DNA from: Polyangia bacterium
GTDB taxonomy: Bacteria; Myxococcota_A; Polyangia; Fen-1088
Assembly (NCBI GenBank): GCA_036267635.1
Contig: DATAVR010000017.1
Location: 2,912-66,911 of the forward strand
Length of the DNA: 64,000 nt
Direction: 5' to 3'
This document shows, piece after piece, positions 5,257-29,621 of the stretch. Each line of letters opens with the position of its first letter. Position 1 is the stretch's first letter. The position numbers and the translations under genes were made by a program. Below the pieces are notes generated by a model that was not told the origin of the DNA, searched no databases, and saw only the letters and a program-made list of their open reading frames with translations.

Positions 5257-6108
5257 TCAGATCGTGACCAGCTCGCGGACGACGAAGGCGCCGTCCTTGT
5301 CGACGCCGAGGCGTCCGGCGGCGTGGTCGCGATCGTGACCCCAGACGAGCAGCCAGTCCTCGGCGAGGGCGCGGGTGAAGAGAGCGCGCTTGGTCTCGAC
5401 GGTCCGCGCCGGCTCGAGGTCGTAGCTCATCACCCAGGGGAGACGCACGTGCACGGCGGTCGGCACCACGTCGCCGAGGAACAGCGCTTTCGGGCCGTCG
5501 GGCGGCCCGATGAGGATCGATTGGTGGCCGGCGGTGTGGCCGGGCGTCGGAATCACGCGCACGCCGGGGGCGATCTCCGTTTCGCCGTCGACGAGCTGTA
5601 ACAGGCCCGCCTCGCCGAGCGGGCCGACATTTTCCTGCAGATAGCTGGCGCGGTTGCGCTCGTGGGGGTGGGTGGCGTCCTCCCACTCGCGCTTCTGGAT
5701 GACGTGGCGGGCCTTGCGAAACACGGGCGTGATGGCGCCCGACGCCGTCCGCCGCGTCGTCCCGCCGCTGTGATCGAAGTGGAGGTGGGTCATCACCACC
5801 GTGTCGATGTCGTCGGGACCGAGGCCAACCTCTTTCAGCGCCGCGCCGATCGCGCGGTCGTGGTCGATGCCGTAGATCTCCTTCAGCTTGGGCGAGAACT
5901 TGTCGCCGTTGCCGGTCTCGACCAGCACCCGACGGCCGCCGGTCTCGATGAGCAGGCAGCGCGTGCTGTATTGGCAGCGGTTGAGCGCGTCGCACGACAC
6001 CAGCTTGGACCAGAGGGTCTTCGGCACCACCCCGTGCATGGCGCCACCGTCGAGACGAAAGCTGCCGCCGTCGAGCGAGGTGATCCGTGCGTCTCCCAGC
6101 GTGAGCAC
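5257..6108 (-). CDS. MBL-fold metallo-hydrolase (YtnP-like)
   Basis: THLHFDHSGG, GHTAGH, GD motifs; F.LDGGAMHGVVPK.LW N-terminus typical of the YtnP group. Confidence 0.9.
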   Translation of the reverse strand: MLTLGDARITSLDGGSFRLDGGAMHGVVPKTLWSKLVSCDALNRCQYSTRCLLIETGGRRVLVETGNGDKFSPKLKEIYGIDHDRAIGAALKEVGLGPDDIDTVVMTHLHFDHSGGTTRRTASGAITPVFRKARHVIQKREWEDATHPHERNRASYLQENVGPLGEAGLLQLVDGETEIAPGVRVIPTPGHTAGHQSILIGPPDGPKALFLGDVVPTAVHVRLPWVMSYDLEPARTVETKRALFTRALAEDWLLVWGHDRDHAAGRLGVDKDGAFVVRELVTI

Positions 6109-6193
6109 GCAGCGATCTTACCGCACCGACGGCCCCGTGCGACCCGCGCGGGTTGAAACGGCGTGGTGCTGCGCGGTGATATCCTGCGCGGGG

Positions 6194-7240
6194 ATGGCGG
6201 TCTGGCTGGCACTGGTCGCGCTGCTCGCGCTCGATCCTGGCGTCGGAGCTGCGCCTCGGCCCCGGTCCGACGTCCGCTTCCTCAAAGGTCAGCTCCATCT
6301 GCACTCGAATCGGTCGGGCGACAGCGACACGCCGCCCGGGGAGGTCGTCCGCTGGTACGCCGCGCATGGCTACGACTTCATCGTGTTCACCGACCACAAC
6401 CGGATCACCGCGCCGCCGTCGACGCCGGCGATGCTCGTCGTGCCCGGCGTCGAGCTGACCCAGAACAGCGACCGCTGTGTGCCGGCGCCGCCGCCCGGAC
6501 GCAAGTGCCTGCTCCACGTCAACGCGCTGTTCGTGACGCCGCCGGCGCTCGGCCTCATTCCCTGGGGCCTCCCCGCCTCCTCGAGCCGCGCCGCGATCTA
6601 CGGTCGGGCGATCGCGGCGGCGCACCGGATGGGCGGCCTGGCCCAGCTCAACCACCCGAATTTCCACTACGGCGCGGATGGCCCGCTGGTCGCCGCGCTC
6701 GCGCGCCAGGGCCTGACGTTGCTGGAGATCGCCAATCAGTCGTGGGACTCGAACGACATCCCCGACGAAAAGGGGCGCCCGACCTCCGAGGCGATCTGGG
6801 ACGCGGCGCTCACCGCGGGCGCCACCGTGTACGGCACCGCGACCGACGACGCCCACCACTACTTCGACGCCCGCGCGGCAGCCGCCCGGGGCGAGCCGGT
6901 GTTTCCGGGCGACCTCGGCTTCGTGATGGTGCGGGCGCGCAAGGACCCGGGCGCGATCCGCGACGCGCTGGCGCGCGGCGACTTCTACGCCTCCACCGGC
7001 GTGCTGCTGGCGCGCGTCGAGCACGACGCCGAGACGCTCACCATCGAGGTCGACGCCCGCGCGCCCGGCAACCACCGCTTCACCTTCATCGGCGCGGGCG
7101 GCAAGACGCTCGCCACGGCCGAGGGGCGCGCCGCCAGCTTCTCGCTCGGCCGCGTGCGCGGCGGCTACCTGCGCGCCGTCGTCACCGATCGCGCCGGCCA
7201 CAAGGCCTGGACGCAACCGATCCGGCTCGCCGCGCCCTGA
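6194..7240 (+). CDS. Secreted PHP-family (CehA/McbA-like) metallohydrolase
   Basis: Signal peptide; KGQLHLHS..SGD, FTDHN, H.N, NHP, TDDAH metal ligands. Start trimmed to ATG 6194. Confidence 0.8.
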   Translation: MAVWLALVALLALDPGVGAAPRPRSDVRFLKGQLHLHSNRSGDSDTPPGEVVRWYAAHGYDFIVFTDHNRITAPPSTPAMLVVPGVELTQNSDRCVPAPPPGRKCLLHVNALFVTPPALGLIPWGLPASSSRAAIYGRAIAAAHRMGGLAQLNHPNFHYGADGPLVAALARQGLTLLEIANQSWDSNDIPDEKGRPTSEAIWDAALTAGATVYGTATDDAHHYFDARAAAARGEPVFPGDLGFVMVRARKDPGAIRDALARGDFYASTGVLLARVEHDAETLTIEVDARAPGNHRFTFIGAGGKTLATAEGRAASFSLGRVRGGYLRAVVTDRAGHKAWTQPIRLAAP

Positions 7241-7294
7241 GGCCGGCTCCGCCGGCGGCCGCTCCCCGCCGGTTCGCCTTCGTGATACTGGTGG

Positions 7295-8692
7295 ATGGTC
7301 GTGTTGCAGGCGCCGATTCCGGCGGACGAGGTGAAGCGGCTGGCGCTGTTGGCGGCCTGCAACATCATCTACACGCCGGCGGAGCAGGCCTTCGACGACG
7401 TGGCGCGCCTGGCCGCCGATCTCTGCGGGACGGAGATTGCGCTCATCACCCTGGTCGACTCCGACTACCAGTGGTTCAAGGCGCGCGTCGGCGTCGAGCT
7501 GGTGGGGACGCCGCGCGACCTGTCGTTTTGCGGCCACTGCATCAACGGCCACCACCCGCTGGTCGTCGAGGACACGCTCTGCGACCGGCGCTTCGCCGAC
7601 AACCCCCTGGTCACCGGCGAGCCCCGCATTCGCTTCTACGCCGGCGTTCCACTGGAGATCGAGCCTGGGTCGGCGGTGGGCGCGCTGTCGGTGGCCGACC
7701 GTTCGCCGCGCACGCTCACCGAGCGGCAGCTCGAGTCGCTGCGCCGGCTGGCCAAGCAGATCGCGCGCGAGCTCGGCCTCCGTCGCGATCTGGAGAAGGC
7801 GGGCGCGATGACGCCGCTGCCCGACACGCTGATCGCCCCCGGCGCGCTCGTCGGCGGGCGCTGGCGGATGGGGCGAGAGCTCGGGCGCGGCGCCGTCGGG
7901 GTGGTCTACGAGGCGCACGATCGCGATGGGCAACGCGCGGCGGTCAAGTTCCTGCTGCCCGAGTGGCGCGCGCAGGAGGAGGTGCTGGAGCGGTTCGCGC
8001 GCGAGGCGCGCGTGCTCATGCGCCTCGACACGCCGCACGTGGGCCGGCTGCTCGACGTGGGCAACCTCGACGCCGGCCTCGGCGGCGTGCCCTACCTGGT
8101 GCTCGAGTACCTCGAAGGCAAGGACCTCGGCGACGTCATCCGCGACGTCGGGCAGGTGCCGATCCCGCAGGCGGTCCGCTGGTGCGCCGACGCTTGCGAC
8201 GGGGTCGCCCAGGCCCACGAGGTCGGCGTGGTCCATCGCGACCTCAAACCTTCCAATGTCTTCCTGGCCGACACCGGGGGCCGCGAGGCGGTGGTGAAGG
8301 TGCTCGACTTCGGGCTGGCGGCCGGCGATCCGTCGCCCGACAACGCGACCAAGCTGACCGGCAACTACGTGATCGGGTCGCCGGCCTACATGGCCCCGGA
8401 GCAGATGGTCGCCTCGAGCAGCGTCGACGCCCGCGGCGACGTCTGGTCGATGGGGGTCGTGCTCTACGAGCTCCTCTCGGGACAGCTTCCCTTCTCGGGC
8501 CATACGCCGCTCGAGATGTTCGCCGCGGTCATGACCCGACCGCCGATCCCGCTCGCCGCCCACTTCGAGGGCGGCCTGCCGCCAGCCGTGGAGGCCGTCG
8601 TCAACAGGTGCCTGCAGAAGGACCGCGCCGAGCGCTATTCCTCCATGCCGGCGCTGGCCCGCGACCTGCGCGCGCTCGCCGGCGCGGCGTAG
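7295..8692 (+). CDS. GAF domain fused to Hanks-type Ser/Thr protein kinase
   Basis: N-terminal GAF (FDDVARLAA..CG..IALITLVD...QWFKAR.G, RFYAGVPL); kinase motifs GRGAVGVV, AVK, HRDLKPSN, DFG, YMAPE, DVWSMG. Confidence 0.9.
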   Translation: MVVLQAPIPADEVKRLALLAACNIIYTPAEQAFDDVARLAADLCGTEIALITLVDSDYQWFKARVGVELVGTPRDLSFCGHCINGHHPLVVEDTLCDRRFADNPLVTGEPRIRFYAGVPLEIEPGSAVGALSVADRSPRTLTERQLESLRRLAKQIARELGLRRDLEKAGAMTPLPDTLIAPGALVGGRWRMGRELGRGAVGVVYEAHDRDGQRAAVKFLLPEWRAQEEVLERFAREARVLMRLDTPHVGRLLDVGNLDAGLGGVPYLVLEYLEGKDLGDVIRDVGQVPIPQAVRWCADACDGVAQAHEVGVVHRDLKPSNVFLADTGGREAVVKVLDFGLAAGDPSPDNATKLTGNYVIGSPAYMAPEQMVASSSVDARGDVWSMGVVLYELLSGQLPFSGHTPLEMFAAVMTRPPIPLAAHFEGGLPPAVEAVVNRCLQKDRAERYSSMPALARDLRALAGAA

Positions 8693-12603: not shown

Positions 12604-14685
12604 ATGAAGCTCGCCGCGTTCGCCCTCGCCGCCGTCTCGCTCAGCACCGTCCACGCCTCGGCGGCGACGTCGCCTCCCGCGCCCGCTACGCAGAAGATCG
12701 CCATCGACGCGCGCGGCCCGCTGGCCCTCGTCGAGGTGACCCGCACGGTGGCGGCCGAGGCGGGGGGCGAGCACGGCAGCGAAGCGCTGCTCGATCTGGC
12801 GCTCCCCGACGGCAGCGCCCTCGTCTCCGTCGAAGTACGCGACGGCGGCCGCTGGCGCACGGTCGCGCCGGCCGCCGAGGGCGCCGCGCGCACCGCCGAG
12901 GTCTACCGGGCCGAGAGCACGGCGCGTGGTGTGACACCGGCCAGTGAGCCATACGACGAGAACGCCACCCACCGGCTGCGCCTCCTGCGCAGCGCGGGCC
13001 ACGGGACGGCGTCGTTCATGGTGCGCTACCGCTTCGCGGTCCTCCCGATCGCCGCCAGCGGCCGCCTCGTCGTGCGCTTCCCGGCGGCAATCGAGCGGCT
13101 CCCCCCGGCGGCCGAGGTGACCTTGCAGCTGCGCGGCGCCAGCGACGGCGAGATTGCCGGCGTGCCCACCACGCTTGGGCCGAGCGCCGGCGCTGTCACC
13201 GGTCGCGCTTCCACGCGTGGCGCCTGGGAGGTGGCCTGGACGCCACGCGATCCGGCAACCGGGCGCGACACCCTCCCGCTGGAGGCGCGGGTCGCGATCG
13301 CGCCGCTCTCGCCCGAGCAGACCGCGCTGGCGTTCCTGGTGCGCCACCGTCCGAGCGCCTCGACGGCCACACCACAAAGCCTCCTCTTCGTCGTCGATCG
13401 CTCGCGCAGCGTGGGGCTGCCGGGGCTTTCGGCCGAACGCGATCTGGTGCGCGCGATCATCGAAGCGCTCCCTCCCAGCACGCGTTTCGACGCGCTCTTT
13501 TTCGACCGCGGCACCAAGCGCCTCTTCCCGATGAGTCGCCCCGCGACGCACGAAGCGATCGAGGGCTTCGAGACGGAGATGGTCCCCGACCGACTGCGCA
13601 ACGGGACCGACCTGTCGAGCGCGCTGCGCGACGCCGGCGCGCTCTTGCGGCGCGAGGCGACGACATTCGGGCCGCGCACCCTGCTGGTCCTGGTCACCGA
13701 CGGCGCCTTGGCCGACGATCTGGACGGCGCGGCGCTCGACCACGCGCTCGGATCGACGCAGGGCCTCGACATCGCGCTGGCGGCGCTCACCATCCGCCCC
13801 GTCGACGATGAACCGATCGCGCCGCGCGCCCGCGACGCCCTGCGCGCGCTGGCGGCCGCCCGCGGCGGCGTGGCCCGCGAGCTCCGCGCGAACGAGATCG
13901 CCGACGCCGTCCCGGCCGCGCTCGCCGACCTGCAGCGCGGTGGCGATCTCGGCGCGATACGGCTCACCGCCGATGGAACTGAGCGACGCCTGTCAGAGGG
14001 CTTGCCGCCCGGTGGTGCCCTGGCGGGCGTCATCCCGCTCAAAGGGCGGCCGCCGCGCGCCGTGCACGTCGAAGCTGTCGCGCGCGGACTGCGGATCTCC
14101 CTCACGCCGGCCTCCGCGCGTCTCCCGCCGGATTGGTTGCGTCCCTGGATCGCCCGCGGCCGGTCGGATCCGACGCGGTTTTTGAGCGCGCCGTCGCTGG
14201 TCGCGCTCGTCGAGCCTGTCGCGCACACCTCCGGCGCTGCCGAGGCGGCGGTCAAAGGCTCGATGGATCGGATGGTGGTGCGGAACGTGTTGTCGCTGGC
14301 TTACATGCCGCGGGCGCGGGCCTGCTACCTGAATCGCACCGCGGCGACGCCGGCGCTGCGCGATCTCGCCGGGAAGGTGCGGCTGGCGATCGATCTGGTG
14401 CGCGGCGAGGTCGACCGGGCGACCATCGAATCGTCGACGCTCGCCAACCCCGACATCGAGCGCTGCCTGCAGGAGAGCGCGTTCGAGATCGAGGTCCCGC
14501 GCGCCGCCCGCAGCGACGCGCCGGTCACCGCCGTGCTCAATATGGTCTTTCGCCCGCGCACCCCCGACAGGAAGGCCGACGTCGATCTGGGCGCCGTGGG
14601 CGATCAGATCGACCTCGTCATCGAGGAGACACAACGCCGGGAAGCGGCCGCGAAACCACCGACGACACATCCCGGCCAGCCGTAG
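12604..14685 (+). CDS. Secreted VIT-like + vWA domain protein with C-terminal AgmX/PglI (TonB-C-like) domain
   Basis: Signal peptide; MIDAS-like DRSRS, GTDL..AL, LVTDG; C-terminal R.CYL..........G.V.L...L..G.V....I.SSTL....IE.CL pattern. Confidence 0.75.
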   Translation: MKLAAFALAAVSLSTVHASAATSPPAPATQKIAIDARGPLALVEVTRTVAAEAGGEHGSEALLDLALPDGSALVSVEVRDGGRWRTVAPAAEGAARTAEVYRAESTARGVTPASEPYDENATHRLRLLRSAGHGTASFMVRYRFAVLPIAASGRLVVRFPAAIERLPPAAEVTLQLRGASDGEIAGVPTTLGPSAGAVTGRASTRGAWEVAWTPRDPATGRDTLPLEARVAIAPLSPEQTALAFLVRHRPSASTATPQSLLFVVDRSRSVGLPGLSAERDLVRAIIEALPPSTRFDALFFDRGTKRLFPMSRPATHEAIEGFETEMVPDRLRNGTDLSSALRDAGALLRREATTFGPRTLLVLVTDGALADDLDGAALDHALGSTQGLDIALAALTIRPVDDEPIAPRARDALRALAAARGGVARELRANEIADAVPAALADLQRGGDLGAIRLTADGTERRLSEGLPPGGALAGVIPLKGRPPRAVHVEAVARGLRISLTPASARLPPDWLRPWIARGRSDPTRFLSAPSLVALVEPVAHTSGAAEAAVKGSMDRMVVRNVLSLAYMPRARACYLNRTAATPALRDLAGKVRLAIDLVRGEVDRATIESSTLANPDIERCLQESAFEIEVPRAARSDAPVTAVLNMVFRPRTPDRKADVDLGAVGDQIDLVIEETQRREAAAKPPTTHPGQP

Positions 14686-20087: not shown

Positions 20088-20417
20088 ATGGAAGAGACTG
20101 CGTTCAATCCCAAACGGCGCCTCTGCCCCGACGGCAGCTGCGTGGGCGTCCTTGGTGCCGACGGGCGCTGCAGCGTTTGCCGGCGCTCCGCGGGAGCGGG
20201 TGGCGACTCGCCAGCTGAGTCGTTTGCCGATTCGTCCGGCGATACGTCTGCTGAGATCTTGGCCGCCGCCGGCGATGACGACGCGCGCGCCTCCGAGAGA
20301 GGGGACGGAGCGAGCTCCGGCTTCGATCCGAGGCGCCGGCTGTGTGACGACGGGAGCTGCGTCGGCGTGGTGGGCGCCACCGGAGTCTGTGGCACCTGCG
20401 GTCGGAGAGCGGACTAG
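20088..20417 (+). CDS. Small protein with duplicated 4-Cys motif (putative double zinc finger)
   Basis: FNPKRRLCPDGSCVGVLGADGRCSVC and FDPRRRLCDDGSCVGVVGATGVCGTC joined by an acidic linker. Confidence 0.72.
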   Translation: MEETAFNPKRRLCPDGSCVGVLGADGRCSVCRRSAGAGGDSPAESFADSSGDTSAEILAAAGDDDARASERGDGASSGFDPRRRLCDDGSCVGVVGATGVCGTCGRRAD

Positions 20418-20418
20418 C

Positions 20419-20778
20419 GTGCCGAGCGTCGCTGTCGTCGGGGCCTCGAGCGCACCGCAGAAGTTCGGCAACAAGGCGGTCCGCGCCTACCTGCGCCGGG
20501 GCTGGACGGTCTACCCGGTGAATCCCAACGAAAAGACGATCGAAGGGCTGCCGGTCTACGCCCGCGTCGAGGATCTGCCGGCCGGCGTGGAGCGCTTCTC
20601 GCTCTACGTGCCGCCCTCCGTCGGGATCACGCTGCTGGAGGCGATCAAGAGCAAGCAGCCGAAGGAGGTCTATCTCAACCCGGGCTCCGAGAGCGACGAG
20701 CTCATCGCCCGCGCCGAGACGTTGGGCCTGGAACCGATCCTCGCCTGTTCGATCATCGAGATCGGCGAGCGGCCTTGA
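20419..20778 (+). CDS. CoA-binding domain protein (YccU-like)
   Basis: VAVVGAS..PQKFG.KAV......G.TVYPVNP....IEG, LNPG, C..I; GTG start 1 nt after the upstream stop. Confidence 0.85.
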   Translation: MPSVAVVGASSAPQKFGNKAVRAYLRRGWTVYPVNPNEKTIEGLPVYARVEDLPAGVERFSLYVPPSVGITLLEAIKSKQPKEVYLNPGSESDELIARAETLGLEPILACSIIEIGERP

Positions 20779-20797
20779 GCTAATCTCGCGCGCCTCG

Positions 20798-21730
20798 ATG
20801 CCGGCTTACGCGGTCAACAGCATGCTCGATCTCATCGGCGGGACGCCGCTGGTGAGGCTGCGCCACCTCGTCGACCCGACGATGGCCGACGTGTTCTGCA
20901 AGTGCGAGCAGTTCAACCCGGGCGGTTCGCTCAAGGATCGGGTGGCGCTCTCGATGATCGAGGCGGGCGAGCGCGACGGAAAGCTCACGCCGGGAGAGTC
21001 GGTGATCATCGAGCCGACCTCCGGCAACACCGGCGTCGGGCTGGCGCTGGTGTCGGCGGCCAAGCGCTATCGCCTCATCCTGACAATGCCCGACAACATG
21101 TCGCTCGAGCGGCGCGCGCTGCTCAAGGCCTACGGGGCCGAGCTGCACCTGACGCCGGCGGCGGCGGTCATGCGCGGCGCGGTCGAGCGCGCCCAAGAAC
21201 TCGCCCGCGATTACCCGCACGCCTTCATGCCGCAGCAATTCAACAACCCGGCCAACGTCGCCGCGCACTACCGCACGACGGGCCCCGAGATCGTCGCCCA
21301 GCTCGGCAACCGCAGCCCGGACGCCTTCGTGCACGGCGTGGGGACGGGCGGGACGATCACCGGCGTCGGGCGGGTGCTGCGGGAGCTGCGCCCCGACGTG
21401 CGCATCGTGGCGGTCGAGCCGGACAAGAGCGCCGTGCTGTCGGGCGGACCGCCGGGCGAGCACCGGATCGACGGCATCGGCGCCGGGTTCGTGCCGGCCA
21501 TCCTCGACAGAGCCGTGCTCTCGGAGGTGCGGACGATCTCCGAAGGCGACGCGCAGCGGACCAAGCTGGCGCTGGCGCGGCGCGAGGGGCTGCTGGTCGG
21601 CATCTCCGCCGGCGCCTCGGTGAAGATCGCGCTCGACGTCGCGCGCGAGCTCGGGCCCGGCAAGACCGTCGTCACCATCCTCTGCGACACCGGCGAGCGG
21701 TACTTCTCGTCGGACGCCTATTTCGAGTAA
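20798..21730 (+). CDS. cysK: Cysteine synthase A (PLP)
   Basis: NPGGSLKDR (PLP Lys), EPTSGNTG, QQFNNPAN, GVGTGGT, H.I.GIGAGF.P, DTGERY.S. Confidence 0.9.
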   Translation: MPAYAVNSMLDLIGGTPLVRLRHLVDPTMADVFCKCEQFNPGGSLKDRVALSMIEAGERDGKLTPGESVIIEPTSGNTGVGLALVSAAKRYRLILTMPDNMSLERRALLKAYGAELHLTPAAAVMRGAVERAQELARDYPHAFMPQQFNNPANVAAHYRTTGPEIVAQLGNRSPDAFVHGVGTGGTITGVGRVLRELRPDVRIVAVEPDKSAVLSGGPPGEHRIDGIGAGFVPAILDRAVLSEVRTISEGDAQRTKLALARREGLLVGISAGASVKIALDVARELGPGKTVVTILCDTGERYFSSDAYFE

Positions 21731-21740
21731 GGGGCCGCGA

Positions 21741-22472
21741 GTGAGCTCCCCGCCGGCCGTGTTGATCCTGGGGGCCGGCGGTCTCGGCTGTCCGGCGGCG
21801 CTGGCGCTGGCGGCGGGCGGCGTCGCGCGGATCGGCGTGGTCGACGACGACCGCGTCGACACCACGAACCTCCACCGCCAGATCCTGTTTTCCGACGCCG
21901 ACGTCGGTGAAGCGAAGGCGACCGCGTTCGCGCGGGCCCTGGCCCGGCGTTTTCCGACCGTCGAGGTGACGCCGCACGCCGTTCGCTTCGAGGTGGAGAA
22001 CGCGCGGGCGCTGGTCGCCGCGTATGACGTCATCGTCGACGGGACCGACAACTTCGCGGCCAAGTTCCTGGCCAACGACGCGGCCGTGCTCTGCGGCAAA
22101 CCGCTGGTCCACGGTGCCGCGGTCGCGCTGGGGGGGCAGATGCTCACCGTCCCCGCCGGCGGGCGCCCCTGTTACCGGTGCCTCTTCGAGGAGCCGCCCC
22201 CTGCGGGCGTCGGCCCCTCGTGTGCGGAAGCTGGCGTGCTGGGTCCGGTGCCGGGCGTCATCGGAGCCTTGCTGGGGGTGGAGGCCGCCCGGCTGGCCAA
22301 AGGCGAAACTCCCGCTTTCGTTGGGCGATTGGTCCAGTATGATTCCCGTTCGATGTCGGTCCGGACCGTCCGCTTCAACCCCAACCCGCTGTGCGCCGTC
22401 TGCGGCCCCGAGGCGCGCATCCGCGACCTGTCGGCCGCCGAGTACCCGGCCGCTGACTGTGCAACACCATGA
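21741..22472 (+). CDS. moeB: ThiF/MoeB-family adenylyltransferase (E1-like), catalytic motifs intact, N-terminal RYxRQ helix absent
   Basis: GAGGLG, DDDRVD.TNLHRQ, K, DGTDN, CYRC, SCAEAGV, CAVC; no rhodanese domain. Confidence 0.88.
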   Translation: MSSPPAVLILGAGGLGCPAALALAAGGVARIGVVDDDRVDTTNLHRQILFSDADVGEAKATAFARALARRFPTVEVTPHAVRFEVENARALVAAYDVIVDGTDNFAAKFLANDAAVLCGKPLVHGAAVALGGQMLTVPAGGRPCYRCLFEEPPPAGVGPSCAEAGVLGPVPGVIGALLGVEAARLAKGETPAFVGRLVQYDSRSMSVRTVRFNPNPLCAVCGPEARIRDLSAAEYPAADCATP

Positions 22473-23740
22473 GCACCGCCCCCGCCATGAACCAACCCTC
22501 GTACGTCCAGGGACTCAGCTGCCGTGAGTGCGGCACGCGCTACGACAAGGCCCCCATCCACGTCTGCGAAAACTGCTTCGGCCCGCTCGAGGTCGCCTAC
22601 GACTACGCCCGCATCGGCCAGGTGCTGACCCGCACCGCGATCGAGGCGCGTCCGAAGTCGATGTGGCGCTACGCCGAGCTGCTGCCGCTCGACGGTCCGC
22701 CCGCGGTCGGGCAGGCGAGCGGGATGACGCCGCTCCTGCGCGCCGATCGCCTGGCCAAGCGGCTCGGGCTCAAGGAGGTGTGGGTGAAGAACGACGCCGT
22801 CAGCTACCCGACGCTGTCGTTCAAGGATCGCGTCGTCTCGGTCGCGGTGTCGAAGGCGATCGAGTTCGGCATCGGCACCATCGCCTGCGCCTCGACCGGA
22901 AACCTGGCCAACGCCACCGCCGCCCAGGCCGCCGCGGCGGGGCTGCCGGCCGTCATCCTGGTCCCCTACGATCTCGAGCCGGCCAAGATCCTCGGCACCA
23001 GCATCTACGGCGCGCGCGTGGTCAGCGTCAAAGGGACCTACGACGACGTCAACCGGTTGTGCTCGGAGATCGCCGGTAAGTACGGCTGGGGCTTCGTCAA
23101 CGTCAACCTCCGCCCGTTCTATGCCGAGGGCTCCAAGAGCTACGCCTACGAGATCGCCGAGCAGCTCGGCTGGCGGCTGCCGGCGCACGTCGTCGTCCCC
23201 ATGGCCGGCGGCTCGCTGGTGACCAAGGTGGGCAAGGCGTTCGGCGAATTCGAGAAGTTGGGCCTCGTCGCGGCGCCCGCGCGCAAGCCGCGCATCCACG
23301 GCGCCCAGGCCGAGGGGTGCGCGCCGATCATCGACATGGTGCTCGAGAACCGCGATCATGTCCGGCCGGTCAAGACGCCGACGAGCATCGCCAAGTCGCT
23401 GGCCATCGGTAACCCGGCCGACGGCTTCTATGCCCGCCAGACGATCATCGGCTCGGGCGGCTGGGCCGCCAAGCCGAACGACGACGAGATCATCGCCGCC
23501 ATGCGCCTCCTGGCCGAGACCGAGGGGATCTTCACCGAGACGGCCGGCGGGGTGACGCTCGGCGCGGCGCTCAAGCTGATCGCCGGCGGTCAGATCGGCA
23601 AGGACGACGGGCCGGTGGTCATCTGCATCACCGGCAACGGGATGAAGACGCAGGACCCGCTGGTCGGCAAGCTGCCCAAGCCGGCGCTGATCGGCCCGCG
23701 CCTCGGTGATTTCGACGATCTGCAGGCGACCTGGACCTGA
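22469..23740 (+). CDS. thrC: Threonine synthase-family PLP enzyme with N-terminal Zn ribbon
   Basis: CREC...C..CFGPL, PT.SFKDR, STGNLA, N.RP.Y.EG.K, P.AGG.L, ETAGG, ITGNG.K; the true substrate is not certain. Confidence 0.8.
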   Translation: MSTAPAMNQPSYVQGLSCRECGTRYDKAPIHVCENCFGPLEVAYDYARIGQVLTRTAIEARPKSMWRYAELLPLDGPPAVGQASGMTPLLRADRLAKRLGLKEVWVKNDAVSYPTLSFKDRVVSVAVSKAIEFGIGTIACASTGNLANATAAQAAAAGLPAVILVPYDLEPAKILGTSIYGARVVSVKGTYDDVNRLCSEIAGKYGWGFVNVNLRPFYAEGSKSYAYEIAEQLGWRLPAHVVVPMAGGSLVTKVGKAFGEFEKLGLVAAPARKPRIHGAQAEGCAPIIDMVLENRDHVRPVKTPTSIAKSLAIGNPADGFYARQTIIGSGGWAAKPNDDEIIAAMRLLAETEGIFTETAGGVTLGAALKLIAGGQIGKDDGPVVICITGNGMKTQDPLVGKLPKPALIGPRLGDFDDLQATWT

Positions 23741-23764
23741 CCTGGACCCAAGAGGAGAGAATTC

Positions 23765-24037
23765 ATGGCCACCATCCGCATACCGACGCCGCTTCGCAAG
23801 CTGACCCAGGGCAAGGAAGAGGTCACCGCGACGGGCGCCACGATCGGCGCCCTCATCGCCAGCCTGGAGACGCAGTACCCGGGGATCAAGGAGCGGATCT
23901 GCGACGACAGCGGTCAGGTCCGCCGCTTCGTCAACATCTTCGCCAACGACGAAGACATCCGCTTCCTCAAGAATCTCGACACGGCCGTCAAGGATACCGA
24001 CGAGATCTCGATCGTTCCGGCGATCGCCGGCGGATGA
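23765..24037 (+). CDS. MoaD/ThiS/CysO-family ubiquitin-like sulfur carrier
   Basis: IRIPTPLR..T.G, RRFVNIF.N.EDIRF, C-terminal IVPAIAGG; strong SD AGAGGAG. Confidence 0.92.
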   Translation: MATIRIPTPLRKLTQGKEEVTATGATIGALIASLETQYPGIKERICDDSGQVRRFVNIFANDEDIRFLKNLDTAVKDTDEISIVPAIAGG

Positions 24038-24597
24038 CCCCCGAAGAGGTCCAACGTTACGCGCGCCAGATCGCGCTCCCCGAAGTCGGCCCCCAAGGAC
24101 AGGCGCGGATCTGCGCCGCGCGCGTGCTGATCGTCGGCGGCGGGCTCGCCGCGGAGACGGCCGCGTCGTATCTGAAGGCCGCCGGCCTGGGCGAGGTGAT
24201 CGCGCGCGAGCTCCCTCCGGGCGACGGTGAGGCTTGGATGACGGCGTTGGCGGGAATCGATCTGGTCGTCCGCGCCGGGTTCGACGACGACGCGATGCTG
24301 GGCGCGGCCAAGCGGCTCGGGCTGCCGGTGATCGTGGTGCGGGCCGCGGCCGCGCAGATCGATCTGCTCTCGTTCCCTCGACGGGCGCCGGCGCCCGAGG
24401 CCTCCCTGGAGGTCCCGCTGCAGGCAGCCGCGACGTCCACCCCGGGCGCAGCCGACGTTCTCGGCGGAGCGCTGGCGGCCGCCGAGGCGCTGGTCCGCCT
24501 GGCGCGCATCGACGGCGAAATTGGCAGGATTCGCCACCTGCGGCTCCCCCTCGACGGCGGCCTGCCGCTGGCGCAGGAGATCGGCGGGCGGGCGTGA
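24034..24597 (+). CDS. Degenerate ThiF/MoeB-like protein (predicted catalytically inactive)
   Basis: Keeps RYARQI.LPEVG..GQ and a Rossmann-like VLIVGGG, but lacks DxD/NLxRQ, the Mg-binding Asp, the Zn-binding CxxC pairs and the active Cys. Confidence 0.8.
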   Translation: MTPEEVQRYARQIALPEVGPQGQARICAARVLIVGGGLAAETAASYLKAAGLGEVIARELPPGDGEAWMTALAGIDLVVRAGFDDDAMLGAAKRLGLPVIVVRAAAAQIDLLSFPRRAPAPEASLEVPLQAAATSTPGAADVLGGALAAAEALVRLARIDGEIGRIRHLRLPLDGGLPLAQEIGGRA

Positions 24598-25565
24598 ACC
24601 AGCAACTCGACGTCGTCCGCCGCGCGCGCCTGCGCGTCGCCGAGCGGGTCACCGACCTCATCGGCGACACGCCGATCGTGCGGCTGCATTGCTTTGAACG
24701 CGATTCGCCCGGCGTCGAGCTGTGGGCCAAGTGCGAGTTCCTCAACCCAGGCGGCTCGGTCAAGGATCGCGCCGCCTACCAGATGATCCGCGACGCCATC
24801 CGCACCGGCGCGCTCAAGCCCGGGCAGACGATCATCGACTCGACGAGCGGCAACACCGGCGTCGCCTACGCGCTCATCGGCGGCGCGCTCGGCTACCCTG
24901 TCACGCTGGTGATGCCCGGCAACGTCTCCTGGGCGCGCCGCAAGATCACCGAGGCGTTCGGGACGACGCTGGTCTTCTCCGATCCGATGGAGGGTTCCGA
25001 CGGCGCGATTCGCCTCTGCCGCAAGATGGTCGACGACAACCCCGGCCACTACTTCTATCCCGACCAGTACTCGAACCTCTCCAACCCGCTCGGCCACTAC
25101 AACACCACGGGGCGGGAGATCTGGGAGCAGACCGAGGGGCGCGTCACCCACTTCGTGACCGGCATCGGCACCACCGGCACGGTGATGGGGACCGGACGCC
25201 GGTTGAAAGAATACCGCCGCGACATCGAGGTCTGGGCGGTCGAACCCGCGGACGCGCTGCACGGCCTCGAGGGGTTGAAGCACATGGAGAGCTCGCTCGT
25301 CCCCGCCATCTACCACCCCGAAGAGCTGAACGGCGTGCTGGCCATGGACACCGACGAGGCCTGGGACGTCTCCGAGCGGCTGGCCAAGGAGGAGGGCCTC
25401 CTGGTCGGCCACTCCTCGGGCGCGTCGCTGGCGGGCGGCCTGCGCATCGCCAGGCGGCTGGTCGCCGCCGGCAAACCGGGCTTCATCGTGACGCTGTTCC
25501 CCGATCGCGCCGAGCGCTACTTCGAGGCGCCGGTCCCGCCGAAAGCCGAGCAGTCGGTCACATGA
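24594..25565 (+). CDS. cysM: Cysteine synthase B family (CysM-like)
   Basis: NPGGSVKDR, DSTSGNTG, DQY.N..N...HY.TTG, GIGTTGT, GLEGLKHM, G.SSGA; GTG overlaps the upstream TGA. Confidence 0.87.
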   Translation: MNQQLDVVRRARLRVAERVTDLIGDTPIVRLHCFERDSPGVELWAKCEFLNPGGSVKDRAAYQMIRDAIRTGALKPGQTIIDSTSGNTGVAYALIGGALGYPVTLVMPGNVSWARRKITEAFGTTLVFSDPMEGSDGAIRLCRKMVDDNPGHYFYPDQYSNLSNPLGHYNTTGREIWEQTEGRVTHFVTGIGTTGTVMGTGRRLKEYRRDIEVWAVEPADALHGLEGLKHMESSLVPAIYHPEELNGVLAMDTDEAWDVSERLAKEEGLLVGHSSGASLAGGLRIARRLVAAGKPGFIVTLFPDRAERYFEAPVPPKAEQSVT

Positions 25566-26062
25566 GCGACATCGACGTCGGCGAGCTCCCGCCGCCCCAC
25601 CCCACGGTCTCTGCCGAGGCGCTGGCGGCCATGTACGCGCACGCGCGCCGCGACTACCCCAACGAATGCTGCGGCGTCGTCTTCGGGCCCAAGGGGACGC
25701 CGGCCGCCGACCGCGCCGTCGCCTGCGTCAACACGCAGAACGATCTGCACGCGCAGGATCCGGCGACCCACGCCCGCGACGCGCGCACCGCCTACAACCT
25801 CGGCGCGGGCGATCTGTTCAAGCTCGGCAAGAGCCTGCGTGGCGACACGCCCGCCAAGATCATCTACCACTCGCACGTCGACGTCGGCGCCTACTTCAGC
25901 GACACCGACCAGGCCGCCGCCGTCATGGACGGCGAGCCCTCTTACCCGGTCGAGTACCTGGTCATCGACGTCCGCCAGGACAGCGTTGGCGGCGCCGCAC
26001 AATTCGCCTGGGACGCGGCCGCCCGCCGCTACCTCGAAGTCGGCCGCTACCCGGGCGCCTGA
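25562..26062 (+). CDS. JAB/MPN+ metallopeptidase (Mec, CysO-cysteine peptidase-like)
   Basis: YPNECCG and YHSHVDVGAYFSDTD (HxH-x7-S-x2-D JAMM motif). Confidence 0.88.
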   Translation: MSDIDVGELPPPHPTVSAEALAAMYAHARRDYPNECCGVVFGPKGTPAADRAVACVNTQNDLHAQDPATHARDARTAYNLGAGDLFKLGKSLRGDTPAKIIYHSHVDVGAYFSDTDQAAAVMDGEPSYPVEYLVIDVRQDSVGGAAQFAWDAAARRYLEVGRYPGA

Positions 26063-28604: not shown

Positions 28605-29621
28605 GTGACCGCCCCCCTCTTCCTGCGCGCCTGCCGTGGCGAGACGACCGAACGGACGCCGCTGTGGCTGATGCGGCAAGCGGGCCGCTATCTCCCCGAG
28701 TACCGGCAGGTGCGCGCGGGGGTCAGCTTTCTCGAGCTCTGCAAGACGCCCAAGCTGGCGGCGGAGGTGACGCTGCAGCCGATCCGGCGGTTCGGGTTCG
28801 ACGCCGCGATCCTGTTTTCCGATCTGCTGGTGCCGCTCGAGGCGATGGGGCTGGCGGTCGAATTCACCGACGAGGGGCCGCGGCTGCCGCAGCCGGTGCG
28901 GACCGCGGCCGATCTGGCGCGGGTGGCGCCCTTCGATCCGGCGGCGCGCACGCCGTTCGTGATGGAGACGATCGCGTCGGTCACGTCCGCGCTCGGTCCG
29001 GAGACGCCGGTCATCGGGTTCGCGGGCGCGCCGTTCACCGTCGCCACCTACGCCGTCGAAGGGAAGACCTCGAAGACCTTCGGCGAGACCAAGCGCCTTT
29101 TTTACGAGCGCCCGGCCGACGCGCACCGGCTGCTCGGCCTCATCGGCGAGGCGACGCGCGACTACCTGCTGGCCCAGATTCGCGCCGGCGCGGCGGCGGT
29201 GCAGCTGTTCGATTCGTGGGTCGGCGTGCTGTCGGCCGAGGACTTCGAGACCTTCGCGCTGCCGCCGACGACGGCGCTGGTGGCGGCGCTGCGGGCGACC
29301 GGCGTGCCGGTCATCTACTTCGCCAACGGCGCGGCGGCGATCCTCGATCGCGTGGCGCGCGTCGGGGCCGACGTCTACGGCGTCGACTGGCGGCTGCCGC
29401 TCGACGAGGCGCGCGTGCGGCTCGGCGATGCGCGCGCCGTGCAGGGGAACCTCGATCCGGCCGTCCTTCTGGGCCCGCCCGCCGAGATCGAGCGGCGCGC
29501 GCGCGACATCGTCCGGCGCGGTGGCAAGCGCGGCCACGTCTTCAACCTCGGCCACGGGATCACCCCCGACGTGCCGCTCGAGTCGGTCACTGCGCTGGTG
29601 GCCGCCGTCCGGGGCGCCTGA
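28605..29621 (+). CDS. hemE: Uroporphyrinogen decarboxylase
   Basis: P.WLMRQAGRYLPEY, DAAILFSDLL, IGFAGAPFT.A.Y, QGNLDP, FNLGHGI.P. Confidence 0.97.
   Translation: MTAPLFLRACRGETTERTPLWLMRQAGRYLPEYRQVRAGVSFLELCKTPKLAAEVTLQPIRRFGFDAAILFSDLLVPLEAMGLAVEFTDEGPRLPQPVRTAADLARVAPFDPAARTPFVMETIASVTSALGPETPVIGFAGAPFTVATYAVEGKTSKTFGETKRLFYERPADAHRLLGLIGEATRDYLLAQIRAGAAAVQLFDSWVGVLSAEDFETFALPPTTALVAALRATGVPVIYFANGAAAILDRVARVGADVYGVDWRLPLDEARVRLGDARAVQGNLDPAVLLGPPAEIERRARDIVRRGGKRGHVFNLGHGITPDVPLESVTALVAAVRGA

Follow-up and report, generated by a model that had tools for sequence, protein, structure and literature searches.

Operon organization

We analyzed a 64,000-nucleotide stretch of DNA (here referred to as the window), which corresponds to positions 2,912 to 66,911 of the forward strand of contig DATAVR010000017.1 in assembly GCA_036267635.1, and focused on an operon of nine plus-strand genes, g1 to g9, at positions 20088-26062. 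The source genome, that of a soil myxobacterium, is a Polyangia metagenome-assembled genome (MAG) of 5.7 Mb in 194 contigs and is 90% complete. The operon brings together three pyridoxal phosphate (PLP) enzymes, one ubiquitin-like protein (Ubl), two proteins of the E1 fold and a JAB protease. We read it, with a probability of roughly 0.6, as a protein-thiocarboxylate sulfur-incorporation unit that would serve the synthesis of both cysteine and homocysteine; one carrier with two synthases appears to be the most economical reading of this gene set.

Genes were called by GC3 (third codon position) frame analysis, given a GC content of about 70% in the window, together with inspection of start codons and Pfam and NCBIfam scans. 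These confirmed the layout given in a preliminary description of this DNA, namely nine plus-strand genes with overlaps or gaps of 1-24 nt. The junctions from g1 to g9 measure +1, +19, +10, -4, +24, -4, -4 and -4 nt, and the four 4-nt overlaps fall at g4/g5, g6/g7, g7/g8 and g8/g9. The genes are as follows (aa, amino acids).

g1, 20088..20417, + strand: 109 aa; two C-x4-C-x9-C-x2-C modules; no family
g2, 20419..20778, + strand: 119 aa; PF13380 CoA_binding_2, 93.4 bits
g3, 20798..21730, + strand: 310 aa; CysK (O-acetylserine sulfhydrylase), TIGR01139 397.9 bits against a cut-off of 350.95
g4 (E1a), 21741..22472, + strand: 243 aa; ThiF/MoeB-type E1, PF00899 218.5 bits
g5, 22469..23740, + strand: 423 aa; ThrC-family PLP enzyme with N-terminal Zn ribbon, TIGR00260 255.8 bits
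g6, 23765..24037, + strand: 90 aa; ThiS/MoaD-type Ubl, PF02597 64.9 bits, C-terminus ...AIAGG
g7 (E1b), 24034..24597, + strand: 187 aa; degenerate E1 domain, with a Pfam ThiF match over residues 9-55 only
g8, 24594..25565, + strand: 323 aa; CysM-like PLP enzyme, TIGR01138 327 bits
g9, 25562..26062, + strand: 166 aa; JAB/JAMM metalloprotease, PF14464 (Prok-JAB) 63.7 bits

Conservation of the operon among relatives

Homologous loci were collected by searching species-representative genomes with g5, with an alignment of g7 and with an alignment of g1. As a result, we found the gene order g3-g4-(g5)-g6-g7-g8-g9 in about 50 loci of Polyangia/Myxococcales-type MAGs, usually with g1-g2 in front, and the identity of g5 among these loci falls as low as about 65-73%. 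The arrangement recurs too widely to be due to chance. Pairwise comparison with five relatives gave ratios of nonsynonymous to synonymous substitution rates (dN/dS) of 0.04-0.52 over all nine genes, so all nine are kept by selection. The enzymes and the carrier lie at 0.04-0.33, g7 at 0.26-0.52 and g1 at 0.28-0.51; the best-conserved gene of the operon is the carrier gene g6, with 82-99% identity and a dN/dS of 0.04-0.12.

Two parts of the operon vary. In nine Polyangia loci g5 is missing from an otherwise identical operon, so that g5 is a module gained or lost precisely between the E1 and the carrier. Moreover, g1-g2 stand 1.6-4.8 kb from g3 in several relatives and are missing in others; therefore the core consists of g3-g9, and g1 and g2 are accessory genes, a looser add-on to it. 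The preliminary description, which treated them as integral, had overrated these two genes.

Two loci of Polyangia (L022:4800-7163 and L026:4789-7149) carry a gene for a 786-aa hybrid histidine kinase between CysK and E1a, with an XylR_N/V4R sensor, PAS, HisKA-HATPase and receiver domains, which may regulate the operon in response to a small molecule. In six loci, all from long-read MFD MAGs (L001, L004, L032, L088, L098 and L113), operon genes among g3, g5, g8 and g9 look split over adjacent frames, a pattern confined to these assemblies; the most likely cause lies in indels introduced by long-read assembly and not in true frameshifts.

The carrier and the proposed cysteine branch

The carrier gene g6 sits between g5 and the overlap-joined g7-g8-g9 block. 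Three ThiS-family genes are present in the genome, namely g6, a ThiS-ThiG fusion on contig C63 and a MoaD-MoaE fusion on contig C65, and since the latter two are fused to their cognate partners, g6 is the sole free-standing carrier. The fusion genes lie at C63:5162-6178 (+) and C65:21451-22125 (-). The internal junction of the MoaD-MoaE protein reads ...PPVAGG-AGPE, and the fusion either needs cleavage after GG or works uncleaved; the JAB protein of the operon, g9, is a candidate for its processing enzyme.

Among the PLP enzymes, g3 is the conventional CysK that the preliminary description had named. It exceeds its equivalog cut-off, has the PLP lysine (SLKDR), TSGNTG and GTGGT motifs, and has a paralogue on contig C32 with 70% identity. 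For g8 we propose a carrier-thiocarboxylate-dependent cysteine synthase. Its PLP motifs are intact, and its putative CysM character is taken from the gene context and from the loop before the substrate-binding region, which is 6 residues shorter than that of CysK in our alignment. The order Ubl-CysM-(JAB)-E1 recurs in loci of Thermodesulfobacteriota. The protease g9 has intact motifs, with the upstream Glu in ...NECCG... and the metal-site segment HSHVDVGAYFSDTD (HxHx7Sx2D), and is proposed to free cysteine and homocysteine from carrier-amino-acid adducts in the manner of Mec and HcyD.

All three PLP enzymes might instead use free sulfide, with the carrier, E1 and JAB merely co-located for an unrelated thiolation of a cofactor, tRNA or natural product. 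This would fit g3, a standard sulfide-dependent enzyme, and a g8 without specific similarity to the CysM of Mycobacterium tuberculosis, but we hold it to be extremely doubtful, because 4-nt overlaps bind g4 to g5 and g6 to g7, g8 and g9, because no thiamine, molybdenum cofactor, tRNA-thiolation or siderophore gene was found in the operon or adjoining it, and because ThiS and MoaD are already present and fused to their own partners.

The ThrC-like enzyme and the proposed homocysteine branch

The most likely function of g5, as judged from its sequence and surroundings, is that of a MetM-type homocysteine synthase, which would depend on a carrier thiocarboxylate and take O-phosphohomoserine as substrate. 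Its start overlaps the end of g4 (ATGA) and the carrier gene follows 24 nt downstream. The protein passes the ThrC equivalog cut-off (TIGR00260, 255.8 bits), and among its best 120 matches in a protein search, all at least 79% identical, every named one is called threonine synthase, which is uninformative as to function. The genome has a second ThrC on contig C164, with 230 bits against a cut-off of 167 and 31% identity to g5, so g5 is not the housekeeping ThrC. The C164 protein (open reading frame, ORF, at about 12861-13997) also starts with a Zn-ribbon-like CxxC...CxxC segment, and the N-terminal ribbon therefore does not separate MetM-like from ThrC proteins here.

The source genome has no MetX, no MetA and no MetY above the cut-off, and most of the genus is likewise without them, while a type-II homoserine-kinase-like gene is present. 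O-phosphohomoserine is thus likely to be the sole activated homoserine. For Streptomyces albulus, a thiocarboxylate route described in 2024 leads from O-phosphohomoserine to homocysteine. It uses MetM, with MetO as carrier, Mec as JAB hydrolase and MoeZ as E1; MetM is homologous to ThrC and is said to be "often misannotated" as a threonine synthase (PMC13759103; bioRxiv 10.1101/2024.10.14.618325). An S-adenosylmethionine (SAM) riboswitch is reported upstream of metM in this species (PMC12172450).

Orthologues of g5 with 59-64% identity occur in outgroup phyla (Thermodesulfobacteriota, Verrucomicrobiota and others). A scan of 17 outgroup loci showed a SAM riboswitch (RF00162, 72-98 bits) directly upstream of the cluster with the g5 orthologue in 13 of them; such a riboswitch is strong and independent evidence that these genes take part in methionine synthesis. 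The preliminary description had supposed a second, unnamed sulfur product besides cysteine; it can now be read as homocysteine. Moreover, the 3.5 kb downstream of the ThrC-like gene contain exactly one Ubl gene in 33 of 34 outgroup loci, and the combination of a ThrC-like gene, a single Ubl, CysK or CysM and an E1 is found in 17 of the 28 outgroup loci with enough downstream sequence. The latter supports the earlier suggestion that one carrier feeds both CysM and the ThrC-like enzyme. Outgroup clusters often have a gene for a small sulfite reductase, placed after the ThrC-like gene and before the Ubl, or genes for a Na/sulfate symporter, a 3'-phosphoadenosine 5'-phosphosulfate (PAPS) reductase or DsrE, and these neighbours complete the picture from sulfate to thiocarboxylate.

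The SAM-I riboswitches are at L040:7728-7836, L049:7812-7924, L057:3171-3283, L058:7727-7862 and L044:7725-7860, with more in L046, L047, L050, L053, L054, L055, L060 and L061 around 5790-7920. Their hosts are MAGs of Thermodesulfobacteriota, Verrucomicrobiota and Desulfuromonadales, with clusters of ThrC-like, Ubl, CysM and E1 genes. In L057 and L060 the riboswitch precedes the order CysK-E1-ThrC-like and puts CysK under SAM control, which hints that CysK could provide sulfide from cysteine to the homocysteine branch; L063, which lay outside the RNA-family scan, shares this gene order. A gene for a sulfite-reductase-like protein of about 320-330 aa with NIR_SIR and 4Fe-4S domains stands between the ThrC-like and carrier genes at L040:9386-10351 and L057:6776-7771, and in L040 a radical-SAM gene and then a Na/sulfate-symporter gene follow the E1.

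Another view is that dependence on the carrier is limited to the cysteine branch, as in a core of the CysO/CysM/Mec type, and that g5 makes threonine as a second synthase or is some other beta/gamma-replacement enzyme, recruited for co-regulation and acting without the carrier. The nine operons without g5, which make it dispensable for the core, the ThrC cut-off that g5 passes and the Zn ribbon, which is not diagnostic because the housekeeping ThrC shares it, would all agree with such a view. Against it stand the position of g5 directly upstream of the carrier, together with the single Ubl in nearly all outgroup loci, the control of g5 orthologues by SAM and not by threonine, and the presence of a separate ThrC in a genome that lacks the MetX, MetA and MetY routes. 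We therefore regard this alternative as quite unlikely.

Several points weigh against the reading of a carrier shared by cysteine and homocysteine synthesis. First, g8 reaches 327 bits for TIGR01138 (cut-off 394) and 323 bits for TIGR01136 (cut-off 344), both below the cut-offs, and it is no closer to CysM than to CysK, with 186 bits against M. tuberculosis CysM and 222 bits against ordinary CysKs. Second, the likeness of g5 to S. albulus MetM is drawn indirectly, from family, context and regulation. Third, no SAM riboswitch was detected in the window or in the eight Polyangia loci scanned, so the link to methionine rests on orthologues of other phyla; regulation in Polyangia is different from that in the riboswitch-bearing outgroups. 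Fourth, a cystathionine-gamma-synthase-like gene in the genome scores 505 bits against a cut-off of 513, and the gene absences, which come from a MAG of 90% completeness, are provisional. Finally, two of 21 relatives compared for the distribution of g5 and MetX/MetY (G017 and G018) are without g5 and yet miss MetX and MetY as well. In this comparison the two distributions are only partly complementary, as one relative (G015) has MetX and MetY without g5 and another (G003) has both, and for this reason we did not use complementarity as strong evidence.

The two E1 proteins

The preliminary description had counted two E1s in the operon. Two genes of the E1 fold are indeed present, but one encodes an active, N-terminally truncated protein and the other a degenerate one, and their complementarity had been missed. 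The protein g4 retains GAGGLG, DDDxVDxxNLHRQ, GxxK, TDN, PCYRC, SCAEAGV and CAVCG, that is, a complete adenylation site, both Zn-binding CxxC pairs and the loop Cys. However, it matches PF00899 at profile positions 23-237 only, its alignment with MoeB starts at residue 33, and it has no N-terminal RYxRQ Arg-finger helix. According to Pfam and NCBIfam it consists of the ThiF domain only, without a rhodanese domain.

In g7 it is the other way round. Its residues 2-55 align with ThiF, MoeB and Uba4 over the Arg-finger helix and the next strand, whereas GxGGxG, the DxD..NLxRQ..K block, TDN, PCYRC with its Zn ligands and the loop Cys are lost. All 27 homologues compared share residues R8, R11, G19, G22 and Q23. 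The AlphaFold2 model is confident, with a predicted local distance difference test (pLDDT) score of 89.3 and a predicted TM-score (pTM) of 0.84, and has the fold of an E1 adenylation domain. Its best matches in the Protein Data Bank (PDB) are Uba4, ThiF and MoeB (TMq 0.66-0.70, E 1e-9 to 4e-6), and SAE1, the inactive subunit of the SUMO E1, stands further down the list with TMq 0.64-0.67. We ruled out that g7 is a decaying pseudogene, given its dN/dS below 1, its confident fold and its conservation in about 50 genomes.

The loss of the helix from E1a coincides with the presence of g7. In Polyangia, 26 of 26 loci have a helix-less E1a beside g7, and in 27 of 27 outgroup E1s, all without g7, the motif RYSR[HQ] stands 27 aa before the G-loop. 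Full-length relatives of g7 were found in Polyangia/Myxococcales-type MAGs only, with a truncated E1a alongside wherever the contig reaches far enough upstream. Apparent Arg-finger matches upstream of E1a in L021, L229, L233 and L210 were rejected as Arg-rich out-of-frame read-through with wrong spacing. The complementary loss of motifs and the partition of 26/26 against 27/27 suggest a heterodimeric E1, and it is likely, as far as motifs and models can tell, that g4 and g7 form such a dimer, in which the dead g7 would lend its Arg-finger helix to g4. There are precedents for such a contribution: the Arg finger of ThiF (R11) and MoeB (R14) is supplied by the neighbouring subunit, and yeast Tcd1-Tcd2 is an E1-like heterodimer with one donor subunit (PMC13139853). 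No heterodimeric ThiF/MoeB-type E1 of bacteria was found in the literature searched, whose scope did not extend to older descriptions of split E1s.

Alternatively, g7 might not be an E1 subunit at all, with g4 as a homodimer lacking the Arg finger and g7 as a regulator or a scaffold or adaptor, for example one that docks the carrier to CysM or JAB. MoeB and ThiF reportedly do not require the finger, and Escherichia coli TcdA has none (PMC13139853), so g4 might act alone and g7 do something else. Furthermore, g7 evolves fastest of g3-g9 (36-77% identity, dN/dS 0.26-0.52), and in the clade of the window it has lost a C-terminal Zn motif and a beta-alpha unit. On the other hand, its best-kept part is precisely the RxxRQ..LP..G..GQ helix that g4 is missing, the loss in g4 coincides with the presence of g7 without exception, the pair is kept together even in a minimal cluster, and enzymes of the E1 family dimerize obligately through this domain (PMC13139853). 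This gives the alternative only a modest chance, and the heterodimer is still preferred.

The minimal cluster is located at L226:4980-8350 in a Kofleriaceae MAG and comprises a g1-like gene, an N-truncated E1a, a ThiS-family Ubl, an E1b-like gene with RRYARH, JAB, a DsrE-like gene and TusA. This cluster has no PLP enzyme, so the split E1 pair exists beyond the context of cysteine and methionine; similar clusters are found in L234 and L237. In L035 two intact E1s occupy the same two positions, which is plausibly the ancestral state.

A Ubl, an E1 and a JAB could also make up a protein conjugation system of the SAMP or Urm1 type, alone or beside sulfur transfer, with the PLP enzymes or other proteins as targets and the JAB as deconjugase. 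Archaeal SAMPs and Thermus TtuB act in both conjugation and sulfur transfer. Of the equivalogs of the archaeal SAMP/UbaA/JAMM system, SAMP1 is reached by g6 (NF041918, 62.5 bits against a cut-off of 60), UbaA is the second-best NCBIfam match of g4 and desampylase is the only one of g9, and there is no PLP enzyme in the L226 cluster. But the UbaA and desampylase matches stay far below their cut-offs (229 bits against 450 and 31 against 130), no E2 or E3 is present, and the E1-E2 models of PADLOC match only the Rossmann part, as a generic E1 domain. Moreover, the module consistently sits among sulfhydrylases, sulfite reductase, PAPS reductase, DsrE and TusA, and behind SAM riboswitches. Conjugation, which the preliminary description had left open, is poorly supported without an E2 and with only generic or sub-cut-off matches, and we consider it very unlikely. 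An anti-phage Ubl system was rejected as well, as PADLOC returned generic E1 matches only.

Proposed mechanism and sulfur donor

From the homologies above, the pathway of the shared carrier might run as follows. First, g4, probably as a g4:g7 heterodimer, would adenylate the C-terminal Gly-Gly of g6. Second, sulfide or a persulfide would turn the g6 acyl-adenylate into the thiocarboxylate g6-COSH; candidate donors are free sulfide, a rhodanese-MoeB fusion encoded on contig C132 and the Cys-rich g1. Third, in the cysteine branch, g8 would join g6-COSH to the aminoacrylate formed from O-phosphoserine or O-acetylserine, and after an S-to-N shift g9 would release cysteine. In the homocysteine branch g5 would use O-phosphohomoserine likewise, with release of homocysteine by g9. 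CysK (g3) would make cysteine in the conventional way, from sulfide, as part of the same putative transcription unit.

The absence of rhodanese and cysE, noted in the preliminary description, holds for the operon; genome-wide it does not, as there are a rhodanese-MoeB fusion on C132 and a CysE-like gene below its cut-off (152 bits). The fusion gene (about 30-1394, near the contig end) encodes an N-terminal rhodanese and a complete MoeB-type E1 with RYARH, and its product might serve g6 as another activator or as a source of sulfur. TusA was considered as the missing sulfur relay and ruled out, as it is absent from the source genome at 90% completeness.

A bolder proposal would combine three elements: an obligate two-gene heterodimeric E1, with a dead subunit kept to provide the lost Arg-finger helix, that arose within a sulfur-carrier system independently of eukaryotic E1s; a shared carrier for cysteine and homocysteine that replaces direct sulfhydrylation and transsulfuration in these myxobacteria; and g1 as a dedicated relay of sulfur or zinc that takes the place of rhodanese or TusA. 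We put this combination forward tentatively, as a possibility at well under even odds.

Comparison with known systems

The route in S. albulus was reportedly published by Hasebe et al. in 2024, in Appl Environ Microbiol 90:e0124724. Like MetM and MetO, the operon has a ThrC-family paralogue of the housekeeping ThrC beside a ThiS/MoaD-type carrier with a GG end, a JAB hydrolase and an E1 belong to the predicted pathway, and control by a SAM riboswitch is found, here in orthologues only. Several features are different. The carrier is also flanked by a CysM-like gene and is the sole free one in the genome; the E1 and JAB are inside the operon and not elsewhere; and the window has no riboswitch. 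The E1 comes as two subunits, one active and one degenerate, and has no rhodanese, so g4 is not the MoeZ-type rhodanese-bearing E1 of the MetM/MetO and CysO pathways. Furthermore, the carrier here ends in GG and would need no C-terminal maturation.

In common with the CysO/CysM/Mec+/MoeZ system of M. tuberculosis, the operon has a CysK/M-family enzyme, a ThiS/MoaD carrier and a JAB that are adjacent and coupled, and the same chemistry is predicted here, with attack of the thiocarboxylate on aminoacrylate, an acyl shift and proteolytic release. The trio g8/g6/g9 matches the actinobacterial CysM/CysO/Mec layout of operon types 4c-4d, and such operons are said to "always" carry SirA/TusA (Iyer, Burroughs & Aravind 2006, PMC1779556), which is absent here. 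Other differences are the score of g8 below the CysM cut-off, the E1 without rhodanese, and the additional CysK, MetM-like enzyme and dead E1.

Carrier-dependent homocysteine synthesis in Wolinella succinogenes is said to have been described by Krishnamoorthy and Begley in 2011. As in that system, a carrier thiocarboxylate would become carrier-homocysteine, with release by a JAB and an E1 without rhodanese, and outgroup relatives have sulfite reductase, PAPS reductase and sulfate transporter genes as neighbours. The enzyme of Wolinella is, however, an O-acetylhomoserine sulfhydrylase of the Cys/Met-PLP fold that works on O-acetylhomoserine, whereas the enzyme here has the ThrC fold and would work on O-phosphohomoserine. 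The genes HcyS/HcyF/HcyD/MetY of Wolinella represent operon type 4e (PMC1779556).

Eukaryotic NAE1-UBA3 and SAE1-SAE2 are heterodimers, that is, asymmetric E1s whose halves come from two genes. The g4-g7 pair resembles these and Tcd1-Tcd2 in having an active ThiF-fold half and a dead half that keeps the N-terminal Arg, the residue that in such E1s extends into the ATP site of the partner, with the two halves encoded by two genes. Unlike the eukaryotic type, g4 has neither a catalytic-Cys domain nor a ubiquitin-fold domain, and no E2 is encoded in the operon. The pair also differs from asymmetric E1s in that its predicted substrate is a sulfur carrier and not a protein modifier, that the active subunit is physically without an N-terminal helix of its own after losing it, and that the pair is recent and restricted to a clade of Polyangia-type MAGs, with the complex itself a prediction. 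In bacterial BilD, by comparison, the inactive and active adenylation domains (IAD and AAD) are in one chain (PMC11354881).

Novelty and significance

The two half-pathways, CysO/CysM of M. tuberculosis and MetO/MetM of S. albulus, are already known. New is that both are joined around a single carrier in one operon, together with a complementary E1 pair. If the reading is right, it would give a function to a "threonine synthase" that is very abundant in soil metagenomes, with thousands of close homologues that bear this name where they are named, and would suggest a way in which a large group of uncultured Polyangia make methionine without MetX, MetA and MetY. It would also represent a natural case of one thiocarboxylate carrier partitioned between two amino-acid synthases, which raises questions of specificity and flux control. 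The E1 pair may serve as a recent, small bacterial model for the step from homodimeric MoeB/ThiF to asymmetric E1s of the eukaryotic type, and both the presumed ancestral state (the two intact E1s of L035) and the derived state are at hand for comparison. For annotation, the label threonine synthase should be avoided for g5-type proteins encoded beside a ThiS-like gene, and proteins of the g7 type, 187 aa long, should be recognized as degenerate E1 subunits.

Flanking genes and the accessory genes g1 and g2

The upstream flank of the operon consists of a VWA protein gene and an ORF of 1908 aa, and the downstream flank of GH16, esterase and hemE/H/Y genes; neither is related to the operon. A consensus scan gave no upstream sigma-70 site and no terminator, although such a scan is uninformative in a myxobacterium of 70% GC. 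No riboswitch or leader was found 5' of g1, and a lone sub-threshold small-RNA match (E 0.79) was dismissed.

Gene g2 starts 1 nt past g1 and travels with it in relatives, and was not detected in loci where g1 stands alone; g2 may bind coenzyme A (CoA), by homology only. The protein g1 has no match in Pfam, NCBIfam or PADLOC. It consists of the module F[DN]PxxRRLCxDGxCxGxxGxxGxCxxCGR repeated twice and joined by a variable acidic linker. Among 15 homologues 23 columns are invariant, including all 8 Cys, and the linker is not conserved. The AlphaFold2 model is poor (pLDDT 59.7) and has two small beta-knuckles and a disordered linker.

The g1 family is spread through Myxococcota; about 45 loci have it at the head of the operon, and in about 28 it occurs on its own. 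Three of these solitary cases were examined (L177:5001-6434, L195:5001-6406 and L214:5001-7394), and in each hemE lies downstream of g1, at 50-110 nt in L177 and L195 and at about 1 kb in L214, with a minus-strand ORF between. In the window the operon, GH16 and the esterase separate g1 from hemE, which lies at 28605-29621, 2.5 kb past the operon. The operon may thus have entered a locus where g1 and hemE had been neighbours. A g1-like gene also heads the minimal E1a-Ubl-E1b-JAB-DsrE-TusA cluster of L226, and similarly in L234; this Kofleriaceae-type arrangement ties g1 loosely to the E1/Ubl module, and the module in turn to sulfur relay.

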